A stretch of DNA of 64,000 bases from Escherichia coli O157:H7. Lineage in GTDB: Bacteria; Pseudomonadota; Gammaproteobacteria; Enterobacterales; Enterobacteriaceae. Below, piece by piece: positions 1,683 through 63,451 of the stretch (positions within the stretch are counted from its first letter, which is position 1; each line of letters opens with the position of its first letter). The notes under the pieces are model-generated. The model worked only from the letters and a program-made list of their open reading frames with translations. It ran no database searches and was not told the origin of the DNA. Where the stretch lies: NCBI RefSeq assembly GCF_013167455.1, contig NZ_CP038328.1; one strand, given 5' to 3'. The position numbers and the translations under genes are program-made.

Positions 1683-1880
1683 TTTATTTTTGATAGTATG
1701 AACGAGGGTAGCATTTCTATACAAATCAGTGTTCGGCTGATAGCGAGTTAAACAGTTTACTGAAATGTTCTCAGCAATTAGCTGTTGCCAGGACCTCAAA
1801 AATCCGATTCTGGCGGAAAGTGTGCTGTTTTACCAAGTATTGCTCGTATCTGCAAAGTGTTAGAGCATGTTTTAAGTATA

Positions 1881-2450
1881 TCAGTAACCCTTATTCAGTA
1901 ATGCAGCAAGCGTCGCTCTTGAAACACCGTATTCACGCGCCAATGCGCTAACACTAACCCCAGCGGCCCTTTTGTCTAAAATCGCTCCACGAGCTTCCGG
2001 TGCGATTTTAGCAGGCCTGCCCAATTTCCTGCCTTCAGCTTTTGCCCGTAACAGCCCCGCATTAGTCCGTTCAATCAGCAGGTCACGCTCCATCTCCGCA
2101 ACCGCTGCTAGCATCGACAACAGGAGCTTACCGGCAGCAGAGGTGAGATCAGTGGTGCCAAGCTGATGGACAATAACCTTGATGTTTCGGTCAGCCAACG
2201 TCCTGACAGTTTGCAGAACGTCAATTGCATCACGCCCGAGGCGGTCCAGCTTTGCAACTACCAACGTTTCCCCATCGCGGATTTTGCTGAGCATTTCAAA
2301 AAACGCTTTGCGTTGCACCGCAGGAACCTTTCCGCTGACTACATCAGAAAACCAAAAGTCGAACGTCCACCCAGCTTGTTCAAGTTCCATGCGCTGGTTC
2401 TCAGTATCCTGCTGGGATGTCGAAACACGCCCGTAGCCAAAAATAGCCAT
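1881..2450 (-). CDS. Serine recombinase (resolvase/invertase family)
   Basis: N-terminus MAIFGYGRVSTSQQ contains the catalytic-serine motif typical of resolvase/invertase enzymes; C-terminal helix-turn-helix-like region; GGAGA RBS 6 nt upstream of the chosen ATG (ORF track extends 23 codons further upstream). Confidence 0.8.
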   Translation of the reverse strand: MAIFGYGRVSTSQQDTENQRMELEQAGWTFDFWFSDVVSGKVPAVQRKAFFEMLSKIRDGETLVVAKLDRLGRDAIDVLQTVRTLADRNIKVIVHQLGTTDLTSAAGKLLLSMLAAVAEMERDLLIERTNAGLLRAKAEGRKLGRPAKIAPEARGAILDKRAAGVSVSALAREYGVSRATLAALLNKGY

Positions 2451-2642
2451 AGTCATCTCCTCATCCGGCCCCTGCCAGAAAACGGTGATGAAAATAGGAT
2501 GGCCTGCCGGAAAAGCCAAGGCTAATTTTCCAACAGTGTGAAAGCGTGCGGTTGGAGGATGCCGGAAAACGGTCGTTTGTTGGCGCTTAAAACGGGTGAA
2601 GACATGTTAGGCTGAAACCATCACTTCATAAGGACAACCGAA

Positions 2643-3110
2643 ATGATTAAAGACGCGATTTTTTCACCGTGCGGTAAGTATCGCTACTCGTTATCACGAG
2701 TCTGGGACGAATCAAAACCGTATACCCTTTTCATAGGGCTAAACCCTTCATACGCCGATGCCGAGAAGGATGATCGCACCTTGAGCCGCTGCATATCGTT
2801 TGCCAAAAGCTGGGGCTACGGTGGCGTATACATGGCCAACCTGTTCGCATTCGTTCACACCCAGCGACATGAAATGATGAAAGCGTCTGATCCCATTGGC
2901 AAAGATAACGATAGCCACTTGATACGTCTTGTTAGCGGTGCCGGACTGGTTGTCGCCGCATGGGGAAATGAAGGAAGACACCTCAAACGCTCAACGACCG
3001 TCCGACAGCTATTGCCAGAGAGCACAATGTGCTTCGTCTTAAACGCTACAGGTGAGCCGAAGCACCCTTTGTATATGAAAAACGACAGTGTTCTCATACC
3101 TTTAGGTTAA
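2643..3110 (+). CDS. DUF1643-family protein (155 aa), function unknown
   Basis: Translation (FSPCGKYRYSL...FIGLNPSYAD...) resembles DUF1643 proteins; AGGA RBS before ATG; followed by a 9-bp stem hairpin at 3120-3143. Confidence 0.65.
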   Translation: MIKDAIFSPCGKYRYSLSRVWDESKPYTLFIGLNPSYADAEKDDRTLSRCISFAKSWGYGGVYMANLFAFVHTQRHEMMKASDPIGKDNDSHLIRLVSGAGLVVAAWGNEGRHLKRSTTVRQLLPESTMCFVLNATGEPKHPLYMKNDSVLIPLG

Positions 3111-4113
3111 CATCGATAACTGCGTTCAGAATATGAACGCAGCCATATGATATATATGACTTTTCTTTAAAATGATGGTGTGCTAGCTTCTCTCCTGACA
3201 CCTACCTCATGCGGTAAACCGGTCCGGGTAGGTGGAGATCACCGCTGTTTAGCGGAAGACGTCAGGATGGGAACTCTGCGTAACGTTGATTGTGGTAGGT
3301 AGGGCGCGCAAGCGTTTGATGCAGCCAAGCAGAGGGTGAAAGTAGCTATCGGCGGATTCTTAAGTAGCTTCTTTTGCGCATAATGCATCTTTCAAGAAAG
3401 GTCGTCACACCACGAGGAAGACTTGATCTTCATCTGGCAAGGGGAACCGAGCAAACCTACAGGCTATCTTCTCAGATGGCCTTAGGGTTGATATGTCCGG
3501 CTTCCCCCCCGAGGAAGGGTTTACATCTTAAAGAACAAGTTATGTTTTAACATTTTTAACAATTACACTTCTCTGCTGTTTGGTGTCTTATGGCGTTCCC
3601 GTCAAAAGTAAAGCTGCCGTTTTTACCTCACATGCGTAACAACCAAACACGAACCAGAAGCTGCTAACGTTCAACGTGTTCGCGGTGTAAATGCAGCCGG
3701 ATAAGTTGGGAGCGAAAAAGTGGATGTCCTAGGTTTGGAAGCGCCCCTCTTAAGCATTGCATCCGATAATTTCCGTGGCGGTGAGACAGTCCTTATAGAG
3801 GCAATCAGCCTCCAAAGTTAAGCGACGCGGTAAAACTAAAGCTCGCCCAGATTTCTCATTGATTGCTCGAACTCCGCTACGCTTGTTTCAACTGGCTTCA
3901 CCAGTCACTCTATGAGAGCGCCGCGAATTCTGCACCATGATTTCGACTACCTTCTTTAAAACACTCGCCAGAGAGCCTTACAGCGCGTTTGAACCGCATA
4001 TCGCAGCTTCTGCTTACGGATGACTGTCTGATTAGCAGTAGCTTCATGGCCCAGTCCGGTTTACTTTATTGCTATCAACTAGGAGCCGCCCAAGGGCAAC
4101 ACGGAGATAACGC

Positions 4114-4446
4114 TTGAGAACCGTCGAAATACTGCAATACACCTTACGCAAAGGCAGCGGTGCCGCTTTTCACGCCATAATGCAGGAAATCAGTGTTCCC
4201 CTACACCAAAGCCACGGGATCGATGTTGTTTCGTTTGGCAACTCGCTTGATGACCTGGATTGCTACTACTTGATTCGCGCCTTTGACAGCGCTAAAAGCA
4301 TGACTGCGGTTCTCGATGCTTTTTACGCAAGCGCAGACTGGCGCAGCGGCCCACGCGAAGACATCATTGGCAGCATAGAGAACTGCATTAAAACAGTGAT
4401 TAGCCTACCATCAGAAAGCGTGAAAGGGCTGCGGATGCAATCGTAA
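4114..4446 (+). CDS. NIPSNAP-like small protein (110 aa), TTG start
   Basis: ORF bounded by an in-frame TAA at 4108-4110; GGAG 9 nt upstream of TTG; sequence resembles NIPSNAP/Dabb-like small proteins. Confidence 0.45.
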   Translation: MRTVEILQYTLRKGSGAAFHAIMQEISVPLHQSHGIDVVSFGNSLDDLDCYYLIRAFDSAKSMTAVLDAFYASADWRSGPREDIIGSIENCIKTVISLPSESVKGLRMQS

Positions 4447-5127: not shown

Positions 5128-6018
5128 TCAGGCTGCCAGATCATCGTTTCCGATGGAAGCATAATAAGCTTTTTCTGCTTCTGCCGGAGGAGTATGGCCC
5201 AGCCTTCCCAGCAATCGTCGATTGTTATACCAGTCCACCCACGTTAGTGTGGCCAGTTCCACTTCTGCACGGTTTTTCCAGCTCTTACGGTGTATTACCT
5301 CCGCTTTGTAAAGACCATTGATGCTCTCAGCCATCGCGTTGTCATACGAGTCGCCTGTACTCCCTGTTGATGCCAGTAATCCGGCTTCTTTTAGTCGCTC
5401 CGTATAGGCCAGTGACACATACTGAGAGCCTTTATCGCTGTGATGGATGGTGCCAGACGGACGACGGGCCCACAACGCCTGCTCCAGCGCATCCAGCACG
5501 AATGTCGTTTCCATAGACGATGAGACCCGCCACCCCACGATGTATCCGGCAAACACATCAATGATAAACGCCACATAGACGAAGCCCTGCCATGTGCTGA
5601 CGTAAGTAAAATCAGCCACCCACAGCTGGTCAGGTCGTTCTGCCACGAACTGACGGTTTACGCGGTCGCCTGCGGCAACGGCTTTCCGGCTGATGGTCGT
5701 ACGGACCTTTTTACCCCGGAGAACACCGGCAAGTCCCATAACCGCCATGAGACGTGCCACTGTACATCTGGCCACCCTGATTCCTTCCCGTAACAACTGA
5801 CGCCAGACTTTACGCACACCGTACACCTGATGATTTTCATCGTATACGCGCTGTATCTCTCTCTTCAGCCAGTCGTCGTGCTGCGCACGGGCACTGCGTT
5901 TATCCGGATGATGTCGCTGTTGCTGACAATGGTAATACGTTGACGGGGCAATATGCAGTTCGCTGCATACCGGTCCGACCCCGTACTGCTCACGCAGCTT
6001 ATCCAGCAGTGGCATCAT
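5128..6018 (-). CDS. IS3-family transposase OrfB (integrase/DDE catalytic domain)
   Basis: 296-aa ORF with DDE-transposase features (..WVADFTYV.. / ..HSDKGSQY.. / ..DNAMAES..), overlapping OrfA in the -1 frame. Confidence 0.85.
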
Positions 6019-6341
6019 TTTTTCCAGAGGCGGTCGAACTCCGCCTTCGCAAAATAAGCGGAAGCCTGGCGAAGGATATCGTTACTGCGGCGCAGTTCAC
6101 GATTTTCACGTTCCAGCTCTTTCAGACGCTGACGTTCAGCGCTGGTGAGCCCACCATCACCGCCCCCGGTATCCCGCTCATGCTGGCGAACCCAGACACG
6201 CAGAGTCTCCGGCGTACAGCCAATCTTTGGGGCAATGGAACAAATTGCCGCCCACTGTGAGTCATATTCATCCTGACTTTCCAGAACCATACGAATCGCC
6301 CGCTGACGGACTTCGGGGGAAAAACGAGTATTTTTAGTCAT
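6015..6341 (-). CDS. IS3-family transposase OrfA (HTH / leucine-zipper part)
   Basis: 108-aa [22 protein letters not shown]... ending in the A-rich slippery region CTGGAAAAAATGA that overlaps the OrfB start. Confidence 0.85.
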
Positions 6342-6392: not shown

Positions 6393-8366
6393 TCACTTTC
6401 TTCGCAGCGCATCTCTTACAGCATCCAGCCCATCAGGAATGTTGAATCTCGCTATCTCGGGCAAAGAAAAATCAATCTTTTCGACAACCTCAACCATGTG
6501 AACCGGTTTTAAATCTTTGCTGTATCGCACTTCAGTTTCTGTTTTGCCTCGCACATGCCCAAGTAGCTGCCCACGCAGTTCCGAACTAACACCCTTCTCT
6601 TTAAGCAAAGTTGAAACAGAATGCCGGAAAGAGTGGAAAGATTTGCTTCTGTCTCTTTCAAGTTTTAATCGACCCGCAAGCAATGATTCATTGAACCATG
6701 CGGAAACCGGCCTACCATAGCCTTTGGTTTTATGTGGTTTAAGCTCGGGAAAAAGACGGTCATACCCGGCAGCTTTCAACGCATCCACATACTCGATAAA
6801 ACCGAGTTCAATCAGCGTAGAATGAACCGGAATCTTGCGGCGGGAATTGGCGTTTTTTAGTTTCTTTCCGTTTTCGCTATCGCTTTCAAGGTTCAGGTAA
6901 TAAACGCCGTCATCTGCCAGAACATCGTCCAGCATTAACTGTGCAATCTCGTTAACCCTTGCCCCCGTCATCAAGCCCAACAACGGCGCCCAATAGTGAA
7001 ACGGGCAATATTGATGGAATCGCCCTTGCGCATTACGTTCAACAGTTCCAGCGACAAACCACGGTTGCGAAAAAATTGCCTTAATTTCATGCGGTTCAAA
7101 TATGTCAGTGTGATCCTGCTCTCGCTCACCTTTGTCATCGGGAGGGAAAAAGTTGTCGCATGGCGATTTCAGAAACTTACCATCATCAACAGCCCACTCC
7201 ATTGCACCATAAAGGCCGTTGATATACTTTTTGACAGACTCTTCTGTCATCAGTTTATCGCCACATTCTGCCGCTTTGGCGATTAACTCATCCAGCGTCT
7301 TAACCCCGTGCTTACCTTTCATCAAATTACGGTTAGCAGGAATTGTGCGCAACTTGCTCTCATAAGCCCGGAGGAAATCACGGTCGAAATCTTCCAACTG
7401 AATATCCCCCATCACTTCAATCATCAAATCGAAGTAATAGCGAATATCGCGGAGCGCCGCTTCTGATACCTTGCCCTTACGTCGATGTTTCAAATACTCT
7501 TCACGAAGCCATGACAAGTTTTCATTGTAATGTTTGCGGTGAACATATTCATTAGCGATAACAGGAGCGACAAGAGGCACGGCAGGGTGAATGCTAACTG
7601 CTGGTGGCGTGGTCTTAACCAGCCATGTAAGTCGAAGGCCTTCAGCATGAACTTTGCTAATCAACAGGCTATCAGCAGTTATATCTACGCCGGGTAAATC
7701 GAAGAACCAACCTCCACTTTGGTTATCACCACTAGTTCGAAATGCAGCCTCTCCTTCGGATACTCCAGCGCTCAACAGACAATCTAAAGTATGCCGGGGA
7801 TTGAAGGGGCGGAGATAACCATTTGCGAAGCTCTCGATACCCAGCTCAAACGCGCTATTGAGAATGATGACTTCTTTAGGTTGATCCTTTTCATCATCAG
7901 ACTGTTTTTCTCGTTTTGCACCCGGTTCCCGCTCTACTGCATTAAATTCATCAACATAGAAACCGAACTGACCAGTCGCCAGCCAGAATACCGGGAGGTT
8001 ACGATTAACCACCTCTCGAATCAATTGCGATATAGGCAACTCGATTGATTGAGCAAAGTTAGAAAGCGAGATCATACCCTCACCAGCAAGCAGTGGGGCG
8101 CAGTCACTTAAAGTTCGATAATCCAATTGTTCATACTCTTGTAAGGTCTGATACCAGACCGCCAACAGGAGCGCGGACTTCTGCTTTGCTTCATGAAGAT
8201 CGTGAGTGCCTGTTGAAGTGTGAATCTCACACTGTCCTGCGTATCGACGAAAACGTTGGGGAACGCTAATGCGGACAACATAAATGCCGCTGGTTCGACG
8301 ATAGAGTTTATATCGCTGAGACATCGCCTCGTATACCCTTTTGTAAGAGGGGCTACGCGATTTCAA
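6393..8366 (-). CDS. Tyrosine-type site-specific integrase (657 aa) of the leuX island
   Basis: C-terminal catalytic signature (R...HSFRHS...HVRGKTETEVRY); same strand as and immediately 3' of tRNA-Leu; stop codon coincides with the last 3 bp of the IS element. Confidence 0.85.
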   Translation of the reverse strand: MKSRSPSYKRVYEAMSQRYKLYRRTSGIYVVRISVPQRFRRYAGQCEIHTSTGTHDLHEAKQKSALLLAVWYQTLQEYEQLDYRTLSDCAPLLAGEGMISLSNFAQSIELPISQLIREVVNRNLPVFWLATGQFGFYVDEFNAVEREPGAKREKQSDDEKDQPKEVIILNSAFELGIESFANGYLRPFNPRHTLDCLLSAGVSEGEAAFRTSGDNQSGGWFFDLPGVDITADSLLISKVHAEGLRLTWLVKTTPPAVSIHPAVPLVAPVIANEYVHRKHYNENLSWLREEYLKHRRKGKVSEAALRDIRYYFDLMIEVMGDIQLEDFDRDFLRAYESKLRTIPANRNLMKGKHGVKTLDELIAKAAECGDKLMTEESVKKYINGLYGAMEWAVDDGKFLKSPCDNFFPPDDKGEREQDHTDIFEPHEIKAIFSQPWFVAGTVERNAQGRFHQYCPFHYWAPLLGLMTGARVNEIAQLMLDDVLADDGVYYLNLESDSENGKKLKNANSRRKIPVHSTLIELGFIEYVDALKAAGYDRLFPELKPHKTKGYGRPVSAWFNESLLAGRLKLERDRSKSFHSFRHSVSTLLKEKGVSSELRGQLLGHVRGKTETEVRYSKDLKPVHMVEVVEKIDFSLPEIARFNIPDGLDAVRDALRRK

Positions 8367-8414
8367 GCAAGATTATGAATTAAATTGTTTTAAAACAATA
8401 GTTTAGATGAGTCT

Positions 8415-8499
8415 TGGTGCCGAAGGCCGGACTCGAACCGGCACGTATTTCTACGGTTGATTTTGAATCAACTGCGTCTACCGATTTCGCCACTTCGGC
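8415..8499 (-). tRNA. leuX: tRNA-Leu (anticodon CAA)
   Basis: Reverse complement reads GCCGAAGTGGCGAAATCGGTAGACGCAGTTGATTCAAAATCAACC...GGTTCGAGTCCGGCCTTCGGCACCA: cloverleaf-compatible, CAA anticodon loop, CCA end. Confidence 0.9.
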
Positions 8500-8694: not shown

Positions 8695-9714
8695 ATGTCG
8701 ATGATAAAAAGCTATGCCGCAAAAGAAGCGGGCGGCGAACTGGAAGTTTATGAGTACGATCCCGGTGAGCTGAGGCCACAAGATGTTGAAGTGCAGGTGG
8801 ATTATTGCGGGATCTGCCATTCCGATCTATCGATGATCGACAATGAATGGGGATTTTCACAATATCCGCTGGTTGCCGGGCATGAGGTGATTGGGCGCGT
8901 GGTGGCGCTCGGGAGCGCCGCGCAGGATAAAGGTTTGCAGGTCGGCCAGCGTGTCGGGATTGGCTGGACGGCGCGTAGCTGTGGTCACTGCGACGCCTGT
9001 ATTAGCGGTAATCAGATCAACTGCGAGCAAGGTGCTGTGCCGACGATTATGAATCGCGGTGGCTTTGCCGAGAAGTTGCGTGCGGACTGGCAATGGGTGA
9101 TTCCACTGCCAGAAAATATTGATATCGAGTCCGCCGGGCCGCTGTTGTGCGGCGGTATCACGGTCTTTAAACCACTGTTGATGCACCATATCACTGCTAC
9201 CAGCCGCGTTGGGGTAATTGGTATTGGCGGGCTGGGGCATATCGCTATAAAACTTCTGCACGCAATGGGATGCGAGGTGACGGCCTTTAGTTCTAATCCG
9301 GCGAAAGAGCAGGAAGTACTGGCGATGGGTGCCGATAAAGTGGTGAATAGCCGCGATCCGCAGGCACTGAAAGCCCTGTCGGGGCAGTTTGATCTCATTA
9401 TCAATACTGTGAACGTCAGCCTCGACTGGCAGCCTTATTTTGAGGCGCTGACCTATGGCGGTAATTTCCATACGGTCGGTGCGGTTCTCACGCCGTTGCC
9501 GGTTCCGGCCTTTACGCTGATTGCGGGCGATCGCAGTGTCTCTGGCTCTGCTACCGGTACACCTTATGAGTTGCGTAAGCTGATGCGCTTTGCCGCCCGC
9601 AGCAAGGTTGCGCCGACTACCGAATTGTTCCCGATGTCGAAAATTAACGATGCCATCAAGCATGTGCGCGACGGTAAGGCGCGTTACCGCGTGGTTCTGA
9701 AAGCTGACTTCTGA
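8695..9714 (+). CDS. ahr: NADPH-dependent aldehyde reductase (Zn-dependent alcohol dehydrogenase family)
   Basis: Translation [26 protein letters not shown]... with GHEVIG and CGxCxxC zinc motifs; ORF track start is 14 codons upstream. Confidence 0.9.
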
Positions 9715-13952: not shown

Positions 13953-15467
<1,515 letters not shown>

Positions 15468-15469
15468 TT

Positions 15470-15795
<326 letters not shown>

Positions 15796-16264: not shown

Positions 16265-19119
16265 TGGAAAAGACATATAACCCACAAGATATCGAACAGC
16301 CGCTTTACGAGCACTGGGAAAAGCAGGGCTACTTTAAGCCTAATGGCGATGAAAGCCAGAAAAGTTTCTGCATCATGATCCCGCCGCCGAACGTCACCGG
16401 CAGTTTGCATATGGGTCACGCCTTCCAGCAAACCATCATGGATACCATGATCCGCTATCAGCGCATGCAGGGCAAAAACACCCTGTGGCAGGTCGGTACT
16501 GACCACGCCGGGATCGCTACCCAGATGGTCGTTGAGCGCAAGATTGCCGCAGAAGAAGGTAAAACCCGTCACGACTACGGCCGCGAAGCTTTCATCGACA
16601 AAATCTGGGAATGGAAAGCGGAATCCGGCGGCACGATTACCCGTCAGATGCGCCGTCTCGGCAACTCCGTCGACTGGGAACGTGAACGCTTCACGATGGA
16701 CGAAGGCCTGTCCAATGCGGTGAAAGAAGTTTTCGTTCGTCTATATAAAGAAGACCTGATTTACCGTGGCAAACGCCTGGTAAACTGGGACCCGAAACTG
16801 CGCACCGCTATCTCTGACCTGGAAGTGGAAAACCGCGAATCGAAAGGTTCGATGTGGCACATCCGCTATCCGCTGGCTGACGGTGCGAAAACCGCAGACG
16901 GTAAAGATTATCTGGTGGTCGCGACTACCCGTCCGGAAACCCTGCTGGGCGATACTGGCGTAGCCGTTAACCCGGAAGATCCGCGTTACAAAGATCTGAT
17001 TGGCAAATATGTCATTCTGCCGCTGGTTAACCGTCGTATTCCGATCGTTGGCGACGAACACGCCGACATGGAAAAAGGCACCGGCTGCGTGAAAATCACT
17101 CCGGCGCACGACTTTAACGACTATGAAGTGGGTAAACGTCACGCGCTGCCGATGATCAACATCCTGACCTTTGACGGCGATATCCGTGAAAGCGCCCAGG
17201 TGTTCGATACCAAAGGTAACGAATCTGACGTTTATTCCAGCGAAATCCCGGCAGAGTTCCAGAAACTCGAGCGTTTTGCTGCACGTAAAGCGGTCGTTGC
17301 TGCGGTTGACGCACTCGGCCTGCTGGAAGAAATTAAACCGCACGACCTGACAGTTCCTTACGGCGACCGTGGCGGCGTAGTTATCGAACCAATGCTGACC
17401 GACCAGTGGTACGTACGTGCCGATGTACTGGCGAAGCCGGCAGTTGAAGCGGTTGAGAACGGCGACATTCAGTTCGTACCGAAGCAGTACGAAAACATGT
17501 ACTTCTCCTGGATGCGCGATATTCAGGACTGGTGTATCTCTCGTCAGCTGTGGTGGGGTCACCGTATCCCGGCATGGTACGACGAAGCGGGTAACGTTTA
17601 TGTTGGCCGCAACGAAGAAGAAGTGCGCAAGGAAAATAACCTCGGTGCCGACGTTGCCCTGCGTCAGGACGAAGACGTTCTCGACACCTGGTTCTCTTCT
17701 GCGCTGTGGACCTTCTCTACCCTAGGCTGGCCGGAAAACACCGACGCACTGCGCCAGTTCCACCCAACCAGCGTGATGGTATCTGGTTTCGACATCATCT
17801 TCTTCTGGATTGCCCGCATGATCATGATGACCATGCACTTCATCAAAGATGAAAATGGCAAACCGCAGGTGCCGTTCCACACCGTTTACATGACCGGTCT
17901 GATTCGTGACGACGAAGGCCAGAAGATGTCCAAATCCAAGGGTAACGTTATCGACCCGCTGGATATGGTTGACGGTATTTCGCTGCCAGAACTGCTGGAA
18001 AAACGTACCGGCAATATGATGCAGCCGCAGCTGGCGGACAAAATCCGTAAGCGCACCGAGAAGCAGTTCCCGAACGGTATTGAGCCGCACGGCACCGATG
18101 CCCTGCGCTTCACCCTGGCGGCACTGGCGTCTACCGGTCGTGACATCAACTGGGATATGAAGCGTCTGGAAGGCTACCGTAACTTCTGTAACAAGCTGTG
18201 GAACGCCAGCCGCTTTGTGCTGATGAACACGGAAGGTCAGGATTGCGGCTTCAACGGCGGCGAAATGACGCTGTCGCTGGCGGACCGCTGGATTCTGGCG
18301 GAGTTCAACCAGACCATCAAAGCGTACCGCGAAGCGCTGGACAGCTTCCGCTTCGATATCGCCGCAGGCATTCTGTATGAGTTTACCTGGAACCAGTTCT
18401 GTGACTGGTATCTCGAGCTGACCAAGCCGGTAATGAACGGTGGCACCGAAGCAGAACTGCGCGGTACTCGCCATACGCTGGTGACTGTACTGGAAGGTCT
18501 GCTGCGCCTCGCGCATCCGATCATTCCGTTCATCACCGAAACCATCTGGCAGCGTGTGAAAGTACTTTGCGGTATCACTGCCGACACCATCATGCTGCAG
18601 CCGTTCCCGCAGTACGATGCATCTCAGGTTGATGAAGCCGCACTGGCCGACACCGAATGGCTGAAACAGGCGATCGTTGCGGTACGTAACATCCGTGCAG
18701 AAATGAACATCGCGCCGGGCAAACCGCTGGAGCTGCTGCTGCGTGGTTGCAGCGCGGATGCAGAACGTCGCGTAAATGAAAACCGTGGCTTCCTGCAAAC
18801 CCTGGCGCGTCTGGAAAGCATCACCGTGCTGCCTGCCGATGACAAAGGTCCGGTTTCCGTTACGAAGATCATCGACGGCGCAGAGCTGCTGATCCCGATG
18901 GCTGGCCTCATCAACAAAGAAGATGAGCTGGCGCGTCTGGCGAAAGAAGTGGCGAAGATCGAAGGCGAAATCAGCCGTATCGAGAACAAGCTGGCGAATG
19001 AAGGCTTTGTCGCCCGCGCACCGGAAGCGGTCATCGCGAAAGAGCGTGAGAAGCTGGAAGGCTATGCGGAAGCGAAAGCGAAGCTGATTGAACAGCAGGC
19101 TGTTATCGCCGCGCTGTAA
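16264..19119 (+). CDS. valS: Valine--tRNA ligase
   Basis: 951-aa translation with HMGH and KMSKS class-I synthetase motifs. Confidence 0.95.
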
Positions 19120-39424: not shown

Positions 39425-39560
<136 letters not shown>

Positions 39561-39609
39561 TTGATTGCCTGATACAGCCTACACGCGGACTGATAAGCCA
39601 GGCGAAATA

Positions 39610-40074
39610 ATGAATTATCATCAGTACTATCCTGTCGACATCGTCAACGGTCCCGGCACTCGCTGCACCCTGTTTGTCTCCGGGTGTGTTCATGAATGCC
39701 CCGGTTGCTATAACAAAAGCACATGGCGGGTAAATTCCGGTCAGCCATTTACTAAAGCAATGGAAGACCAGATCATTAACGATCTGAATGACACTCGTAT
39801 CAAACGCCAGGGTATTTCCCTCTCCGGCGGCGATCCGCTGCATCCGCAAAACGTGCCGGATATTCTGAAACTGGTACAACGCATCCGCGCCGAGTGTCCG
39901 GGTAAAGACATCTGGGTGTGGACAGGCTATAAACTCGACGAACTCAACGCTGCGCAAATGCAGGTTGTTGATTTGATTAACGTGCTGGTCGACGGCAAAT
40001 TTGTGCAGGATTTAAAAGACCCTTCCCTGATCTGGCGCGGCAGCAGCAATCAGGTGGTGCATCATTTGCGATGA
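39610..40074 (+). CDS. nrdG: Anaerobic ribonucleotide reductase activating enzyme (radical SAM)
   Basis: 154-aa translation with CxxxCxxC cluster (CVHECPGC). Confidence 0.9.
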   Translation: MNYHQYYPVDIVNGPGTRCTLFVSGCVHECPGCYNKSTWRVNSGQPFTKAMEDQIINDLNDTRIKRQGISLSGGDPLHPQNVPDILKLVQRIRAECPGKDIWVWTGYKLDELNAAQMQVVDLINVLVDGKFVQDLKDPSLIWRGSSNQVVHHLR

Positions 40075-40118
40075 TAAGTTCCCTGTTACCTGAGTGCAGG
40101 CAACAGGGAAATGAGGAA

Positions 40119-40508
<390 letters not shown>

Positions 40509-40688
40509 TCACTTCCTTTTTTATTTACACTTCATCCTTCACACTGCCTCATCGACGACTACGCTCATTCGACCGGGTCACGTACTGCGAGTACGCTCCC
40601 CGGCCCTCATTCACTTTCCGTCTCGATGCAGTGCGAATGATTTTGTGTAATTTTTTAGTTTATAGCGCGGCAGGTCGCGCCAGTTTTT

Positions 40689-42041
40689 TTACTGTCCGGC
40701 GATTTTCATCTCCGGCAACAGCACAGAACCACACTGTATATTACTGCGTGTTTCAATATCGTTACCGACGGTGACAATATTGCGCCACATATCTTTTAAA
40801 TTACCTGCGATGGTGATTTCGCTAACCGGATACTGAATTTCGCCGTTTTCTACCCAGAAGCCCGCCGCACCACGGGAATAATCACCGGTAATTGCACTCA
40901 CGCCCTGGCCCATCAATTCCGTCACCACCAGCCCGGTGCCCATCTCTTTGAGCATCTGCTCGAAGCTTAGACCTTGTCCGGCAATCCGCCAGTTGTGAAT
41001 ACCGCCCGCATGTCCGGTGCTTTTCAGCCCCAGTTTCCGCGCCGAGTAGCTGGTCAGCAGCCACTGAGTCAGGATGCCATCTTTAATAATATCGCGACGC
41101 TCGGTGCGCACACCTTCGCTGTCAAATGGCGTCGATGCCAGCCCTTTCAGCAGATGCGGATGCTCTTCAATGGTCAGCCAGTCCGGCAGAATTTGTTTAC
41201 CCAGCGAATCCAGCAGGAAGGTAGATTTACGGTAAACCGATCCACCCGCTATCGCCCCCACCAGATGCCCAAAAAGCCCGGTTGCCACTTCATTGGCAAA
41301 AATGACCGGCGCTTTCATGGTGGAGAGTTTACGCGGTGACAGACGCGATAAAGTACGGCGAGCGCAATCGGCCCCGACCCACTCTGGCGTCTGCAAATCG
41401 CTCATCGCGCGGCCAATGGTGTAGGCGTAATCACGCTCCATATCGCCATTTTCTTCGGCAATTACACAGCTGGAGAGCGAATGACGCGTTGAGCAGTAAC
41501 CCTGCAACATGCCGTGGCTGTTGCCAAAAACTTTGACACCGTAGTGGCTGTTAAAGCTGCCACCTTCGGTATTGGTGATGCGTTTGTCCGCCTGCAATGC
41601 CGCCTGTTCTGCGCGGGCCGCCAGTTCAATGGCTTCATCCGGGGAAACTTCCGCAGGGTGGAACAAGTCGAGATCCGGTGCGTCAAAGGCCAGCAGCTCT
41701 TTGTCTGCCACGCCGGCACAGGGATCTGGCGAGGTATAACGGGCAATATCCAGCGCCGCCTGTACAGTACGGGCAATGGCCTGCGGGCTTAAATCGGTGG
41801 ATGATGCGCTACCTTTGCGGTTCTGGTGATAAACAGTGATCCCCAGCGCGCCATCGCTATTGAATTCAACATTCTCCACTTCACCATAACGCGTGCTTAC
41901 GCTAATGCCGGTGGTCTTGCTGACGGCAACTTCCGCACCGTCCGATTTGCCTGAGGCCAACTCCAGCGCAGTGGAAACTGCTTCTTCCAGAATCTTGCGC
42001 TGCGCTTCAACTTGAGAGATTACTTTCATTGCAAGTGCCAT
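40689..42041 (-). CDS. pmbA: Metalloprotease PmbA (TldE)
   Basis: 450-aa translation; TldD/PmbA family. Confidence 0.9.
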
Positions 42042-42134
42042 AATGTAGAGAGTTTCTCTGAAGTCTAACAGAGAACCGTTTTTCAGTGCGCATCTTAACT
42101 GGTAACATTAGCCTCTTTTTTTAAGGAGCCTGAG

Positions 42135-42686
42135 ATGACTAAGCAGCCCGAAGACTGGCTCGACGACGTTCCCGGTGATGACATCGAAGACGAAGACGAT
42201 GAAATTATCTGGGTCAGTAAAAGTGAAATTAAACGTGATGCCGAGGAGCTAAAACGCCTTGGCGCGGAAATTGTTGATCTGGGGAAAAACGCGCTGGATA
42301 AGATCCCGTTAGATGCGGATCTGCGCGCGGCTATTGAGCTCGCCCAGCGTATTAAGATGGAAGGTCGCCGCCGCCAGTTGCAGCTCATCGGTAAGATGCT
42401 GCGCCAGCGCGATGTAGAACCGATCCGTCAGGCGCTGGATAAGCTGAAAAACCGTCACAACCAGCAGGTGGTGCTGTTCCATAAACTGGAAAACCTGCGC
42501 GATCGTCTGATCGATCAAGGTGATGACGCCATCGCTGAGGTATTAAATCTGTGGCCCGATGCCGATCGTCAGCAACTGCGTACTCTGATCCGCAACGCGA
42601 AGAAAGAGAAAGAAGGGAATAAGCCGCCGAAATCCGCACGCCAGATTTTCCAGTATCTGCGCGAACTGGCGGAGAATGAAGGGTAA
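42135..42686 (+). CDS. yjgA: Ribosome-associated protein YjgA (DarP)
   Basis: 183-aa translation with acidic N-terminus, divergent from pmbA. Confidence 0.85.
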
Positions 42687-42699
42687 TTTTCGTTGTTGA

Positions 42700-42830
42700 T
42701 GTGAGTATGGTTTGCCGGATGCGGTGCACCTGTAGGCCTGATAAGACGCATCAAGCGTCGCATCAGGCACTATGCTCAAATGCCGGATGCGGCGTGAACG
42801 CCTTATCCGGCCTACGCACACTATCTCAGG
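42700..42830. repeat. REP/BIME elements between yjgA and mpl
   Basis: Repeated GCCGGATGCGG...CCTTATCCGGCCTAC / GCCTGATAAGACGC...GTCGCATCAGGC units. Confidence 0.75.
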
Positions 42831-42841
42831 CTGAGGCCGAA

Positions 42842-44215
42842 TTACTGCGCAGCTTCCGCCTTCTTCGCCAGACCATCCAGTAGTTTCTGATGGATCCCAC
42901 CAAAACCGCCGTTGCTCATCACCAGAATATGGTCGCCAGGCTGAGCGGTTTTCACCACCATATCTGCCAGCGTATCCACATCGCCACTCCAGTGTGCAGG
43001 CTGAACGCAGGCTTCTGCCACTTCTGCCACCTGCCACGGAATATGCGCCGGTTGCAGCAGGAAGACTTCATCGGCACGACCTAATGAAGGTGCCAGATCG
43101 TCTTTGCAGATCCCCATTTTCATGGTATTCGAGCGCGGCTCCAGCACAGCAATAATGCGCGCCGTACCACCAACTTTGCCACGCAGCGCCGCCAGCGTTG
43201 CCAGAATCGCCGTCGGATGATGGGCAAAATCGTCATATACCGTGACGCCATTCGCTTCACCACGCAACTCCAGACGGCGGCGAGCGTTAATAAACGAACC
43301 CAGCGCGTTAGCGGCATCTGCCGGCGCTACACCAACATGGCGAGCCGCTGCAATCGCCATCAGGCCATTGTGCATATTATGTTCGCCTACCAGCGACCAT
43401 TTCACTTCGCCCACTTTTTCGCCATCCAGCAAAACTTCCCATTCGGAAGCATCGGTGGTCAGCTTTTTCGCCTGCCAGTGACCCTGCTCACCCACCAGCT
43501 CCTGCTCGCTCCAGCAGCCCATCGCCATGGTCTGTTTCAGGTTGATGTCATTTTCCGGCCAGATAATACGACCCTGCCCCGGAACGATACGCACCAGATG
43601 GTGGAACTGTTTCTGGATCGCTTTCAGGTCGTCAAAGATATCGGCGTGATCGAACTCAAGGTTGTTGAGGATCAGCGTACGCGGGCAGTAATGGACAAAT
43701 TTAGAGCGTTTGTCGAAGAAGGCGCAGTCGTACTCATCCGCTTCGATAACAAAGAAGTCGCTTTCGCCCAGACGCGCCGAAACCTCAAAGTTCCCCGGCA
43801 CACCGCCGATTACAAAGCCCGGTTTGTAACCACACTGTTCCAGAATCCAAGTCGCCATTCCCGCGGTGGTGGTTTTGCCGTGTGTACCGGCAACGGCCAG
43901 CACCCAGCGGTCGCGCAGCACAAAATCGTGCAGCCACTGTGGACCTGACATATAAGGGATGTTTTTTTCCAGTACCGCTTCCACACACGGATTTCCACGG
44001 GTCATGGCGTTGCCAATAATCACCAGATCCGGCTGCGGGTCGAGCTGGCTGGCATCGTAACCCTGAATCAGCTCAATGCCTTGCTTCTCAAGTAAGGTGC
44101 TCATCGGCGGATACACATTGGCGTCCGAACCCGTTACTTCATGGCCTAACTGGCGCGCCAGCATCGCCAGACCGCCCATAAACGTGCCACAAATTCCTAA
44201 AATATGAATGCGCAT
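42842..44215 (-). CDS. mpl: UDP-N-acetylmuramate:L-alanyl-gamma-D-glutamyl-meso-diaminopimelate ligase
   Basis: 457-aa Mur-ligase-family translation (MRIHILGICGTFMGGLA...). Confidence 0.9.
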   Translation of the reverse strand: MRIHILGICGTFMGGLAMLARQLGHEVTGSDANVYPPMSTLLEKQGIELIQGYDASQLDPQPDLVIIGNAMTRGNPCVEAVLEKNIPYMSGPQWLHDFVLRDRWVLAVAGTHGKTTTAGMATWILEQCGYKPGFVIGGVPGNFEVSARLGESDFFVIEADEYDCAFFDKRSKFVHYCPRTLILNNLEFDHADIFDDLKAIQKQFHHLVRIVPGQGRIIWPENDINLKQTMAMGCWSEQELVGEQGHWQAKKLTTDASEWEVLLDGEKVGEVKWSLVGEHNMHNGLMAIAAARHVGVAPADAANALGSFINARRRLELRGEANGVTVYDDFAHHPTAILATLAALRGKVGGTARIIAVLEPRSNTMKMGICKDDLAPSLGRADEVFLLQPAHIPWQVAEVAEACVQPAHWSGDVDTLADMVVKTAQPGDHILVMSNGGFGGIHQKLLDGLAKKAEAAQ

Positions 44216-44390
44216 GCGTCACTATCCTTTTTTAATCTGCCGCTCATTTTACGCATATGTCGGGCAAGTGAGAAACGCATTTCAGGATAATCCGTAATTT
44301 GCTGGCGCGATTCACCTGAGCGCAACATTGAGATTATTTGTTAAGATTGTTGCGGTCGCTTTACTCCATAAACATTGCAGGGAAAGTTTT

Positions 44391-45389
44391 ATGAAAACGT
44401 TAGGTGAATTTATTGTCGAAAAGCAGCACGAGTTTTCTCATGCTACCGGTGAGCTCACTGCTTTGCTGTCGGCAATAAAACTGGGCGCCAAGATTATCCA
44501 TCGCGATATCAACAAAGCAGGACTGGTTGATATCCTGGGTGCCAGCGGTGCTGAGAACGTGCAGGGCGAGGTTCAGCAAAAACTCGACTTGTTCGCTAAT
44601 GAAAAACTGAAAGCCGCACTGAAAGCACGCGATATCGTTGCAGGCATTGCCTCTGAAGAAGAAGATGAGATTGTTGTCTTTGAAGGCTGTGAACATGCAA
44701 AATACGTGGTGCTGATGGACCCACTGGATGGCTCGTCCAACATCGATGTTAACGTCTCTGTCGGTACCATTTTCTCCATCTACCGCCGAGTTACGCCCGT
44801 CGGCACGCCGGTAACGGAAGAAGATTTCCTCCAGCCTGGTAACAAACAGGTTGCGGCAGGTTACGTGGTATACGGCTCCTCTACCATGCTGGTTTACAGT
44901 ACCGGATGCGGTGTTCACGCTTTTACTTACGATCCTTCGCTCGGCGTTTTCTGCCTGTGCCAGGAACGGATGCGCTTCCCGGAGAAAGGCAAAACCTACT
45001 CCATCAACGAAGGAAACTACATTAAGTTTCCGAACGGGGTGAAGAAGTACATTAAATTCTGCCAGGAAGAAGATAAATCCACCAACCGCCCGTATACCTC
45101 ACGTTATATCGGCTCACTGGTTGCGGATTTCCACCGTAACCTACTGAAAGGCGGTATTTATCTCTACCCAAGCACCGCCAGCCACCCGGACGGCAAACTG
45201 CGTTTGCTGTATGAGTGCAACCCGATGGCATTCCTGGCGGAACAAGCGGGCGGTAAAGCGAGCGATGGCAAAGAGCGTATTCTGGATATTATCCCGGAAA
45301 CCCTGCACCAGCGCCGTTCATTCTTTGTCGGCAACGACCATATGGTTGAAGATGTCGAACGCTTTATCTGTGAGTTCCCGGACGCGTAA
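44391..45389 (+). CDS. fbp: Fructose-1,6-bisphosphatase class I
   Basis: 332-aa translation [15 protein letters not shown]...; ORF track start is 21 codons upstream. Confidence 0.95.
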
Positions 45390-45421
45390 TCTCCTGCGCC
45401 TCTCCACACGGAGAGGCGATT

Positions 45422-46417
45422 TTATTGCTGCGCAATGTTGACTCTTGTCACAGGCGAACTCTGACGATTCTCCCACAGCACCGTTAATCCACGCTGTAAT
45501 GCTATAAAAATAAACAACAAAATACCGATGGCGATTTTCGTCCACCATGAGCTCAGCGTACCATCAAAGTTTATGTAAGTCTGAATCAGTCCCTGAATCG
45601 CCACGCCAAAAAGCGTCCCTAATACCGTTCCAACGCCACCGCTCAAAAGCGTACCGCCAATCACCACTGAGGCGATAGCGTCCAGTTCCACACCTACGCC
45701 CGCCAGCGCGTATCCGGCCTGGGTATAAATCGAGAAGACAATCCCCGCCAGTGTCGCCAGTCCGGTAGAGAGCATATAAATGCGAATAGTTGTGCTGCGA
45801 GTGGAAATCCCCATCAGGTTTGCCGACGTCGCATTGCCGCCAATGGCGTACACCTGATTACCAAAGCGGGTACGATGCGCGAGGAATATGCCGATAACCA
45901 CCACCGCCAGCATCAGCAGCCCCATCGCACTTAAGCGACCGCCGCCAGGAATTTTCCATGCAAGGCTTGAGAGCGTGTCATAAACAGGATGGTTTATCGG
46001 GATCGACTCTTCCGAAACGAGGTAGCTGACGCCGCGCAAAAAGAACATTCCTGCCAAAGTAATGATAAATGCCGGGATCTTCAGGGCGTCGATCAAAAGC
46101 CCCATAAATGCGCCAAAGGCACAGCCCATTACCAGCACCAGCGGAAATGCCAGCAACGGCGAGAGGCCGAAATCGCCAATCACTTTTGCCAGAAACACGC
46201 CGGTAAAGGCGATCACCGAACCAACGGAGAGATCGATCCCACCGGAGAGGATCACAAAGGTCATGCCAACGGCGATTATCCCAAGAAAGGCATTATCGGT
46301 CAGGATATTGCAGATCACTCTTGTGGAAGCAAAACCGGGAAACTGGGTCAGGCAGTAGAGATAACCCAGCACAAAGACGCCGATGGTGATCATCAGTGGC
46401 AAATTACGTTTTATCAC
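45422..46417 (-). CDS. yjfF: Galactofuranose ABC transporter permease
   Basis: 331-aa multi-pass permease, last gene of the ytfQRT-yjfF cluster. Confidence 0.85.
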   Translation of the reverse strand: MIKRNLPLMITIGVFVLGYLYCLTQFPGFASTRVICNILTDNAFLGIIAVGMTFVILSGGIDLSVGSVIAFTGVFLAKVIGDFGLSPLLAFPLVLVMGCAFGAFMGLLIDALKIPAFIITLAGMFFLRGVSYLVSEESIPINHPVYDTLSSLAWKIPGGGRLSAMGLLMLAVVVIGIFLAHRTRFGNQVYAIGGNATSANLMGISTRSTTIRIYMLSTGLATLAGIVFSIYTQAGYALAGVGVELDAIASVVIGGTLLSGGVGTVLGTLFGVAIQGLIQTYINFDGTLSSWWTKIAIGILLFIFIALQRGLTVLWENRQSSPVTRVNIAQQ

Positions 46418-47456
46418 GGCTACGCACTCCTTTAATCAGACTGATAAAGCGTTGCGACTGGACAATCAGCACGCAAAGCACCACCACCGCTTTCACCACC
46501 TGGTTCATCTCTGGCGGAAAGCCCGAAAGCAAAATTCCGGTGTTCATCCCCTGAATAATCAGCGCCCCCACCACCGAAAGCAGTAGGTTAAAACGTCCGC
46601 CCATCAGCGAACCACCGCCAATCACCACCGCGAGAATGGCGTCCAGCTCCAGCCATAATCCGGCGTTGTTGGCATCGGCACCGCGAATATCCGCCGCCAC
46701 GATAATGCCCGCAATCGCCGCACACAGCCCGCTCAACACGTAGGTAAGCATGACGATGATCCGCGTGTTTACCCCGGCATTTTTTGCCGCCCGAATGTTG
46801 ATACCAACGGCTTCGATAAACATCCCCAGCGCCGTTTTGCGGGTCAACAGCCAGAACAGGATAAGCGTCAGCACCGCGATAATGACCGGCGTTGGCAGGA
46901 ACAACAGCGATCCACTGCCGAACCATGAGAGATCCGGCGAGTTAAACGTGATGATCTGTCCGGAGGTGATCAGTTGCGCCACGCCGCGCCCGGCGACCAT
47001 CAGGATCAGAGTGGCGACAAACGGCTGAATTTTGAGGATCGCTACCAGTATGCCGTTCCACAATCCCGCCAGGATGCCGGTGCCCAGGGCGCTTAACAAA
47101 ACAATCGGCAGGCTGAATCCCGCGACCGTCATCGCAGCCGTTGTGGCTCCGGCGATAGCCATCACCGCCCCTACGGAGAGATCAATCCCACCTGTTGCGA
47201 TCACCAGCGTCATACCAATCGCCAGTAGCGCAACGGGGGCGGCGCGATTAAGAATGTCGATAGGGCTACCGAACAAACGCCCATCCTGAAGCACCACCTG
47301 CCAGAAATGCGGGGCCACCAGGCTATCGACCAGCAGCACCAGCAACAGTGCCGCCAGCTGCGGCATTCCCGTTGGCCAGCGAAAGCGCCTTTTTGGCGGC
47401 GTAGTGTCCGGGAGAGATTGAGGCATCACACTGTTCTCCTTACGCCGCAATGGCAT
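46404..47456 (-). CDS. ytfT: Galactofuranose ABC transporter permease
   Basis: Multi-pass permease; true start may be the internal Met 10 codons downstream. Confidence 0.8.
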   Translation of the reverse strand: MPLRRKENSVMPQSLPDTTPPKRRFRWPTGMPQLAALLLVLLVDSLVAPHFWQVVLQDGRLFGSPIDILNRAAPVALLAIGMTLVIATGGIDLSVGAVMAIAGATTAAMTVAGFSLPIVLLSALGTGILAGLWNGILVAILKIQPFVATLILMVAGRGVAQLITSGQIITFNSPDLSWFGSGSLLFLPTPVIIAVLTLILFWLLTRKTALGMFIEAVGINIRAAKNAGVNTRIIVMLTYVLSGLCAAIAGIIVAADIRGADANNAGLWLELDAILAVVIGGGSLMGGRFNLLLSVVGALIIQGMNTGILLSGFPPEMNQVVKAVVVLCVLIVQSQRFISLIKGVRSRDKT

Positions 47457-48942: not shown

Positions 48943-48964
48943 GGTTTCCCCCGGTGTAAAGCGT

Positions 48965-49075
48965 GCTCCCAGTAGGCATGATAAGACGCGGTAAGCGTCG
49001 CATCAGGCTTCAGTGCACCATCGCCGGATGCGGCGCGAGCGCCTTATCCGGCCTACGAATCGGCATCAGGCATAG
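48965..49075. repeat. REP elements between ytfR and ytfQ
   Basis: GCATGATAAGACGCGGTAAGCGTCGCATCAGGC ... GCCGGATGCGGCGCGAGCGCCTTATCCGGCCTAC. Confidence 0.75.
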
Positions 49076-58507: not shown

Positions 58508-58612
58508 ATGCCGGATGCGGCGTAAACGCCTTGCCAGGCCTACAAAATCGTCCAAATTCAATATATTGCAAGGACTGCGTAGGCCTGATCGGCATAGCGC
58601 ATCAGGCAGTTT
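58508..58612. repeat. REP elements downstream of msrA
   Basis: GCCGGATGCGGCGTAAACGCCTTGCCAGGCCTACA ... GTAGGCCTGATCGGCATAGCGCATCAGGC. Confidence 0.65.
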
Positions 58613-58784
58613 TGCATTTTTCAGCTGTCTGAATTTTAACCCTCTGGCGGCTTTACAGTACCTTACGCTATACTAGCCACTGAAAATGCCGGTTCACTTT
58701 CTTCGAATCGGCTTTCAATGTGTATTTCACACAAATTAATCAACTTCCCCTTCCGAGGATCTGGCCTGAAAGGTCGGATAAGAT

Positions 58785-63262: not shown

Positions 63263-63451
63263 TTCTCCACCTCGTCTCTGTGAGCGGTGTTAACTTATTG
63301 TTTTACTTATACCCTATCATTAATGAATGCGCCAACTGTGATAGTGTCATCATTTTCAAAGCGTAAAATTGTGGCATTCTTCACTGTTCTATAAGTAAGA
63401 CGTTTATTCTCCCTTTTCTTTCGTATTCCCGATGATAAAAGGATGTCCCTG

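Follow-up and report, generated by a model that had tools for sequence, protein, structure and literature searches.

A conserved 113-bp res-like array upstream of a small serine recombinase gene in the leuX-integrated island SpLE5 of Escherichia coli O157:H7

The window analysed here, a stretch of 64,000 nucleotides of Escherichia coli O157:H7 DNA (contig NZ_CP038328.1), carries in its left part a small serine recombinase gene which is divergent from a DUF1643 gene, with a gap of 192 bp between the two. The first-pass annotation had described this divergence together with three similar motifs in the gap, and both descriptions are borne out, as the motifs are found exactly where they had been placed (GCCAGAAAACGGTG at 2474-2487, TGCCGGAAAAGCC at 2505-2517 and TGCCGGAAAACGGTCG at 2560-2575). 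Among the matches listed, no RefSeq feature is annotated on the array to which these motifs belong. The genes and features of the locus are the following.

1881-2450, minus strand: small serine recombinase gene (189 aa; PF00239, E=5e-36), 'recombinase family protein' in RefSeq with identical coordinates and start
2473-2585: whole res-like array, 113 bp, consisting of site III, a 7-bp gap, site II, a 24-bp variable spacer and site I
2473-2497, plus strand: site III (gene-proximal), half-sites a and b as a direct repeat, 12+1+12 = 25 bp
2473-2484, forward: half-site a, TGCCAGAAAACG
2486-2497, forward: half-site b, TGATGAAAATAG, degenerate in O157, TGYCAGAATAG in most relatives
2491-2519, minus strand: candidate sigma-70 promoter of the recombinase gene, -35 TTGGCT at 2519-2514, 17-bp spacer, -10 TATTTT at 2496-2491
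2505-2535: site II, half-sites c and d as an inverted dyad, 12+7+12 = 31 bp
2505-2516, forward: half-site c, TGCCGGAAAAGC, conserved at about +55 from the start codon
2524-2535, inverted: half-site d, minus-strand reading TGTTGGAAAATT, conserved at about +75 from the start codon
2536-2559: spacer between sites II and I, 24 bp, length kept, sequence variable
2560-2585: site I, 26-bp inverted dyad TGCCGGAAAACG-GT-CGTTTGTTGGCG, 12+2+12, candidate crossover site
2560-2571, forward: half-site e, left half of site I
2574-2585, inverted: half-site f, right half of site I, three mismatches in the O157 lineage
2643-3110, plus strand: DUF1643 gene (PF07799, E=1.3e-42), which fills a cargo slot starting at site I
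6393-8366, minus strand: large tyrosine integrase gene (DUF6538 + Phage_integrase), of the 40 related loci L007-L046, at least 20 have a homologue no more than 6 kb from the recombinase
8413-8499, minus strand: tRNA-Leu(CAA) gene leuX (8415-8499, ARAGORN), with the 26-bp att repeat at 8413-8438 as the island end

Many O157 chromosomes are 100% identical to the window over positions 1700-3200, and the Sakai annotation of the region reads 'phage-like element SpLE5'. A second copy of the 26-bp tRNA 3'-end repeat is located at 16666-16691 of sequence L001, approximately 1.6 kb outside the left end of the window, and the paired repeats thus bound an integrative element of approximately 10.2 kb, SpLE5. 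The far end of the island is occupied by an uncharacterised HTH gene, and no Rep or relaxase gene is annotated in it. SpLE5 is arranged in tandem with a second island which harbours Zorya II, a DEAD-box/methyltransferase cluster and a truncated integrase; tandem integration at leuX does occur in this O157 genome. The recombinase belongs to the conserved backbone of a family of small (7-10 kb) tRNA-integrated islands, all of which in addition encode a large tyrosine integrase and, at their end, an HTH protein. Pipolins could be rejected as the host element, as they use a different tRNA-Leu site and carry piPolB.

The match of the recombinase to PF00239 is full-length (1-144 of 145), and the C-terminus shows weak similarity to HTH_7 (E=8e-4) and HTH_23 (E=7e-4), both below the Pfam gathering scores. 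The protein aligns end to end with gamma-delta resolvase, the alignment with the DNA-binding domain reaching residue 187. The nearest solved structures are gamma-delta resolvase (E=8.6e-27), followed by Tn3 resolvase and Gin, with Sin as a more distant match (E=3e-13). Residues R8, S10, D36, R70 and R73 are invariant or nearly so among 12 homologues. As judged from its sequence, the protein is a small serine recombinase of the resolvase/invertase family with predicted catalytic activity. The family is large and strongly conserved, with 72-74% identity between E. coli and Pseudomonas homologues, some of which are labelled 'DNA invertase Pin-like' by their sources. Among the NCBIfam serine-recombinase equivalogs (Mpi, XisF, Ccr, IS607, YneB), the recombinase falls below every cut-off, with Mpi as the best model at 94 bits versus a cut-off of 272.

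In the 64-kb window, the consensus GCCRGAAAAS of the three motifs occurs six times versus 0.81 occurrences expected, a number that none of 100 shuffles reaches, and three of the six occurrences fall inside 97 bp; the three motifs are non-random, far beyond chance. They represent, though, only the best forward half-sites and half of a larger array, which consists of six half-sites of the type TGYYRGAAAACG when both strands are read and homologues are compared. A half-site matrix derived from 25 other loci, with their site I half-sites as the only input, places position 2473 (half-site a, 19.6 bits) first, position 2560 second and position 2574 on the minus strand sixth over both strands of the whole window, and half-sites c and d are also scored by this matrix. 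The centre of site I is an asymmetric GT at 2572/2573. Site II has a 7-bp spacer, CAAGGCT, with CAAGGCTA nearly invariant in alignment A3, which comprises 26 diverse recombinase upstream regions.

Conservation of the motifs upstream of homologous recombinase genes had been named beforehand as a test of their significance, and such conservation is indeed found in approximately 40 loci. A scan of 100,044 species genomes yielded 60 loci, 40 of which have recombinases 59-94% identical to the one in the window, and the half-sites recur at unchanged offsets from the recombinase start codon in about 40 gamma- and betaproteobacterial loci, belonging to Enterobacterales, Pseudomonas, Burkholderia, Methylococcaceae, Gallionella, Duganella, Massilia and others. 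The conserved blocks of A3 coincide exactly with the half-sites and the site II spacer; the spacer between sites II and I (columns 90-112) is devoid of conservation, as is everything beyond half-site f. The architecture is equally constant: in 40 of 41 loci each, the array measures 111-114 bp in total (mode 113), half-sites a and e are 85-88 bp apart, and half-site b begins 13 bp after a in the same orientation. Site I spans 26 bp in 39 of the 41 loci and site II 31-33 bp, and the site I dyad with the core ACGGTCGT is kept in approximately 38 loci. The array is always located directly upstream of the recombinase gene, whatever adjoins it on the other side; loci L011 and L013 share the block of recombinase gene and array at 99% and have unrelated flanks.

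A consensus promoter scan gave no match in the intergenic region at the threshold of the tool. The candidate sigma-70 promoter of the recombinase gene is a manual reading with eight of twelve consensus matches, below the threshold of the scanner; it overlaps both site II and half-site b, and the TTG of its -35 and the TA of its -10 element coincide with nearly invariant A3 columns. As sites II and III overlap the probable recombinase promoter, their occupancy should also repress transcription of the recombinase gene itself, and autoregulation at res is established for Tn3 (PMC7157771).

The arrangement closely resembles the res sites of the Tn3/gamma-delta type, a divergent intergenic array upstream of the resolvase gene with three dimer-sized sites, of which site III is gene-proximal. 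In the published order for the Tn3 family, site III likewise adjoins tnpR (PMC7157771). As a reference, a gamma-delta-like transposon res on a plasmid (L069) was read from the tnpR start codon, which gave dyads of 25, 34 and 28 bp, preceded by 5, 5 and 22 bp, respectively, with a total of 114 bp; the published sizes of sites III, II and I agree with these dyad lengths (PMC2602789). Compared to L069, the distance between the centres of sites I and II is 52.5 versus 53 bp, that between sites II and III 35 versus 34.5 bp and the total length 113 versus 114 bp, and the half-site patterns are related (TGTCYGWTAWWT versus TGYCRGAAAACG, TGYC.GA followed by an A/T-rich part). As in Tn3 res, the candidate promoter lies inside the array, so that autoregulation is likely, and cargo modules abut site I.

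In other respects the array departs from these type systems. Site I has 26 instead of 28 bp with an asymmetric GT core instead of a palindromic TA/AT, site II has 31 bp compared to 34 bp in gamma-delta, and the half-sites of site III form a direct repeat instead of an inverted one, with sites I and II being inverted dyads. The protein identity of the Tn3 and gamma-delta resolvases to the recombinase is only modest (E ~1e-26). In the structure-match alignment, the residues R2, R32, K54 and E56 of the Tn3 2-3' interface (PMC2602789), which keeps the complex at the accessory sites together, correspond to A2, F32, K56 and R58 of the recombinase, three of which (A2, K56 and R58) are invariant across its homologues; as these residues differ, the regulatory complex cannot be a simple copy of that of Tn3. 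Furthermore, unlike in Tn3-family transposons, there is no adjoining DDE transposase, the host element being a tRNA-integrated island with a tyrosine integrase.

The res site of Sin, a resolvase of Gram-positive plasmids, consists of two recombinase sites and an HU/IHF site, unlike the three recombinase-type sites of the present array. The head-to-tail arrangement of site III is shared with site II of Sin (PMC9943657). The dimensions of site I in turn are those of a crossover site of the Hin/Gin/Pin type (12-2-12, 26 bp), in which an A-tract half-site is likewise combined with a 2-bp core that is asymmetric. These properties characterise the hix and gix sites. Invertases, however, require a pair of inverted crossover sites together with an enhancer bound by Fis, and accessory sites do not adjoin their crossover sites, in contrast to the single site with two accessory sites observed here, for which no inversion was seen.

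The number of copies of site I bears directly on this distinction. The search with a 26-bp site I matrix covered the window, L001 (41.5 kb) and, as far as fim, L067 (30 kb). This matrix scores 39.4 bits at position 2560, with shuffled sequence reaching 15 bits, and detects no second site I in either orientation in the 64-kb window (next best 11.2 bits, shuffle level) nor elsewhere in the two tandem islands up to fim (best 9.3 bits). A 126-bp array query was found in 740 of 5,426 complete E. coli genomes, with one copy in 738 of the 740 and two places in the remaining two. In each of 618 E. coli genomes, a 300-bp query centred on site I matched a single collinear place (at an identity of at least 99% in 228 of these), and none of these genomes showed a split, inverted or opposite-strand double match. 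A tandem res pair was not seen in any genome examined. The few copies on plasmids are not native plasmid res sites, a candidate explanation that was rejected, as they are island fragments located between IS26 and IS1 beside chromosomal phs genes. The single-copy state argues against an invertible switch and fits a resting res site. The proposal of a DNA switch in the first-pass annotation is thus not upheld. The same annotation had listed the lack of a partner site in the island among the observations that would speak against its reading, and no partner is found there indeed; this yardstick, though, is inapplicable to res, which is single-copy per element and meets a partner only when the element is duplicated or present in tandem.

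Evidence for recombination at site I comes from the comparison of islands with each other. Islands were compared pairwise over 700 bp on either side of the site I centre, and in eight pairs, which involve at least five recombinase lineages, the cargo side is 97-100% identical with a recombinase side of only 74-84% identity; examples are the window versus Nissle 1917, AF14 and the Enterobacter vonholyi loci L009 and L021, and L007 versus L018. The DUF1643 gene of the window belongs to such a block (2573 to approximately 3750), 97-100% identical between islands. In all eight pairs, the last difference is located 8-11 bp to the left of the site I centre, inside half-site e. The reciprocal constellation, a recombinase side 96-98% identical with unrelated cargo, was observed in three independent pairs, and L011/L013 as well as L024/L026 are identical through half-site e and the centre with the first difference 7 bp to the right, inside half-site f. 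From where the differences begin and end in both classes of pairs, half-site e travels with the recombinase and half-site f with the cargo. Approximately eight independent comparisons bracket the junctions to 2565-2579 (-8 to +7; AAAACGG/TCGTTTGT), a 15-bp interval of conserved bases which cannot be narrowed to the GT. This mosaic pattern is the signature described for recombination between transposons at site I of Tn3-family res (PMC7157771), where toxin-antitoxin modules adjoining site I are swapped (PMC7157771).

Whether ordinary homologous or illegitimate recombination combined with selection could have generated the mosaic, with the block of recombinase gene and operator merely a conserved module, has to be weighed against these data. 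Between islands, homology is also lost at the 3' end of the recombinase gene, a place at which no conserved motif indicative of a second recombination site was found, and there is mosaicism within the recombinase gene itself (the window versus L007, 94-98% identity at 1901-2100 and 80-92% at 2151-2400). A homology break at the recombinase 3' end in the absence of a recognisable site means that other processes also contribute to the mosaic. Stretches of shared identity of about 26 bp are at or below the minimal length for RecA-dependent exchange. At the junctions, the shared identity amounts to only approximately 26 bp, between a saturated spacer and unrelated cargo, which makes ordinary homologous recombination a poor explanation. 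In addition, approximately five diverged recombinase lineages join one near-identical cargo block within the same 15 bp, and two independent pairs break inside the 26-bp site and not at its outer edge, so that we consider this origin of the junctions unlikely. Equally improbable appears a function of the array solely as a transcriptional operator for the recombinase promoter and a divergent promoter, bound by the recombinase or a domesticated form of it, with recombination occurring elsewhere or not at all. The overlap of sites II and III with the best promoter candidate, the conserved TTG and TA columns, the partner site that was never seen and the precedent of Tn3 res autoregulation (PMC7157771) are in line with it. 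However, the catalytic residues are conserved across the family, site I shows the highest conservation of all elements and is a perfect 26-bp dyad of the crossover type even though it is located 110 bp upstream, past the promoter, and the mosaic junctions fall into its core. Moreover, regulation and recombination are compatible, as Tn3 res does both.

Two further readings find still less room. That a Hin/Gin-like invertase uses the array as one end of a DNA switch, inverting or excising the segment, is suggested by the invertase-like half-site and core of site I, the Pin-like labels of homologues and the GRP arm motif of the recombinase, which presumably resembles that of invertases; with no second site I in the window or the rest of the island, collinearity in 618 genomes and accessory sites flanking the crossover site, a trait of resolvases and not of invertases, such a switch is hardly tenable. 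Repeated intergenic 12-mers are also typical of iterons, and with the uncharacterised HTH gene in the island, the repeats could be thought to bind another factor such as the HTH protein of the island, a nucleoid protein of the host or an initiator of replication or transfer (iterons, oriT). This is very improbable given that the array accompanies the recombinase gene in every locus, including L011 and L013 with their unrelated flanks, that its pattern of dyads and spacings reproduces the geometry of res and that the island has no annotated Rep or relaxase gene.

The region 2473-2585 is hence probably the res site, and at the same time an autoregulatory operator, of the adjacent island-borne resolvase. 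The earlier suggestion of a res-like, resolvase-bound and possibly autoregulatory site is in this way well supported by conservation, a Tn3-like geometry and mosaic junctions in the core of the outermost site, from which we infer binding by the recombinase. According to this model, recombinase dimers would bind to sites I, II and III. In an island present in a single copy, occupancy would mainly repress the recombinase promoter, with the site otherwise silent. When two res copies are present as direct repeats on one supercoiled molecule, sites II and III would build a Tn3-like synapse that may act as a topological filter, restricting recombination to directly repeated res copies of the same molecule, and site I would be the crossover site, cut and exchanged at the central GT at 2572/2573. 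Such pairs could arise via tandem integration of islands at one tRNA gene or via dimers of the excised circle, and a circle and a single island of unit length, which may be chimeric, are predicted to result. Over evolution, exchange between res sites at site I would have joined recombinase-side and cargo-side halves of different origin.

The cargo which adjoins site I is diverse. In O157, the slot consists of the DUF1643 gene and approximately 1 kb of non-coding DNA. This stretch (3100-4150) gave no match in Rfam even at E<=1 and, according to blastn, is pieced together from backbone fragments which other islands carry separately. DUF1643 is present beside site I in only a subset of loci; it is optional there and no partner of the recombinase. 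PADLOC and NCBIfam returned nothing for DUF1643, a 438-aa protein, NIPSNAP and DUF4160. In other loci, GajA and GajB (Gabija), two forms of PDC-S06, or a type II methyltransferase followed by an open reading frame adjoin site I; the latter two genes likely are a restriction-modification pair, of which the methyltransferase alone was scanned. E. coli relatives harbour Shedu and an AIPR protein elsewhere in the island. On the opposite side, the gene downstream of the recombinase varies between islands and is sometimes DUF4062, approximately 13 bp past the stop codon of the recombinase, a distance that suggests co-transcription.

This composition touches upon two observations on bacterial immunity. 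The leuX locus is E. coli defence hotspot #37, described as the most occupied one, and how its cargo is mobilised 'could not be readily determined' (Hochhauser et al. 2023, PMC10121019; see also PMC12707154). Small serine recombinases, used as RADS bait, are reported to mark defence systems across phyla, with a function which that study states to be unknown (Andersen et al. 2025 preprint, PMC12632615). As in those systems, the small serine recombinase is located beside anti-phage genes in a defence island and is sometimes upstream of and co-oriented with them; a recombination site is described in neither of the two papers (PMC12632615, PMC10121019), and searching the text of PMC12632615 for res, recombination site, crossover and resolvase gave no match. 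Our tentative proposal, which we regard as possible and on balance somewhat doubtful, is that the res/resolvase module exchanges the defence cargo of these tRNA-integrated islands, part of leuX hotspot #37 among them. Tandem islands would be resolved at site I into a chimeric island with the integrase and cargo of the one and the recombinase and cargo of the other, and the reciprocal chimera would be released as a circle which the integrase could insert again.

A resolvase acting on res is a textbook system, and as far as the searchable literature shows, this member has not been described; nothing relevant to the site was found in the literature on DUF1643, DUF6538 and SpLE5. When tested against the type systems, it differs in the host element, the direct-repeat site III, the 26-bp site I and the interface residues. 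The array family spans integrase-bearing islands of gamma- and betaproteobacteria, with a slot at site I which holds Gabija, PDC-S06, restriction-modification and other cargo, and for annotators the array is a landmark of the cargo boundary. With a defined 113-bp site and a predicted crossover point, the question of how cargo at leuX is mobilised becomes directly testable. If the cargo-swap proposal holds true, it would provide a function for the unexplained linkage of small serine recombinases with anti-phage genes and would explain the modular replacement of cargo at such hotspots.

The leuX locus carries two islands in tandem, one of them the 10.2-kb SpLE5-type element that contains the recombinase and its res array, the other larger and seen in the sequence left of the window (positions 1-16700 of L001, the locus of strain PV15-279, and 1-17000 of L067, a further locus covering this region). 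The larger island has a type II Zorya system and a phosphorothioate-dependent restriction endonuclease along with a huge DEAD/DEAH helicase, methyltransferase and STY4851-family cluster; its truncated integrase adjoins the middle att repeat, and neither res nor the recombinase is present in it.

In the window, the slot 3' of the recombinase gene is variable, being occupied in other islands by DUF4062 or AIPR proteins. Here it holds the gene for a 438-aa protein, a candidate uncharacterised defence gene whose product has no match in Pfam, NCBIfam or PADLOC:
41-214, +, stretch listed together with the gene for the 438-aa protein
366-1682, +, gene for the 438-aa protein

The defence-cargo slot adjoining site I, the inferred crossover site of the res array, is occupied by a DUF1643 gene, which is followed by about 1 kb without an open reading frame above 60 aa:
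window 2643-3110, DUF1643 gene
L002 (Nissle 1917) 8732-9198, DUF1643 gene
L003 (a further compared locus) 8730-9197, DUF1643 gene
window 3111-4113, non-coding stretch between the DUF1643 and NIPSNAP genes

The DUF1643 reading frame is intact in O157, but despite 98-100% identity at the DNA level its annotation shows a frameshift in Nissle 1917 and an internal stop codon in AF14; in APEC37 and strain 16843 only a 3' remnant of the gene is left. From 3111 to about 3750 the non-coding stretch is 97-100% identical among O157, Nissle, AF14 and Enterobacter vonholyi, and in the compared loci L007 and L018 it is, up to the same point, 92-100% identical, whereas the DUF1643 coding sequence reaches only 80-96%. 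An Rfam search of the entire stretch gave no match even at E<=1. By blastn it is a patchwork, as segments 3640-3880 and 3884-3991 are found separately in other islands, the latter usually directly downstream of the integrase gene.

Further along the island, between DUF4160 and the integrase, an IS1203 copy (IS3 family) differs in position and is opposite in orientation between the window and PV15-279, an IS polymorphism among O157 strains that offsets the coordinates beyond it by about 150-170 bp:
window 5128-6341, -, IS1203
L001 23260-24473, +, IS1203

Outside the island, Rfam matches at the gathering threshold are ordinary core-genome features, namely Ysr276, STnc450, ES036, ES239, the Mg riboswitch upstream of mgtA and five copies of the REP-type naRNA4:
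window 14514-14708, 15542-15713, 32411-32526, 39436-49053, 58544-58723 and 63329-63451, Rfam matches

Recombinase and res also occur on IncF-type plasmids, where they are flanked by IS26 and IS1 copies beside the chromosomal phs (thiosulfate reductase) operon:
L068 (plasmid NZ_CP062909.1) 9001-9701, recombinase and res, 84% identical

This copy is a piece of the island that IS26 has moved, not a plasmid resolution system. The enterobacterial island is found on contigs labelled Chryseobacterium sp., Bacillota MAG and Collinsella MAG (L007, L010, L020), with 83-94% recombinase identity. Within the stretch compared, L020 and E. coli Nissle do not differ in their identity values to the window. Contaminating or mis-binned Enterobacterales DNA is the probable source of all three contigs, not real cross-phylum transfer.

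Almost all loci compared have GT at the centre of site I; a few distant lineages (L033, L034, L036, L041) instead have AT, AA, TT or GA. Should this central dinucleotide be the crossover overlap, the islands would fall by such differences into groups unable to recombine with one another.
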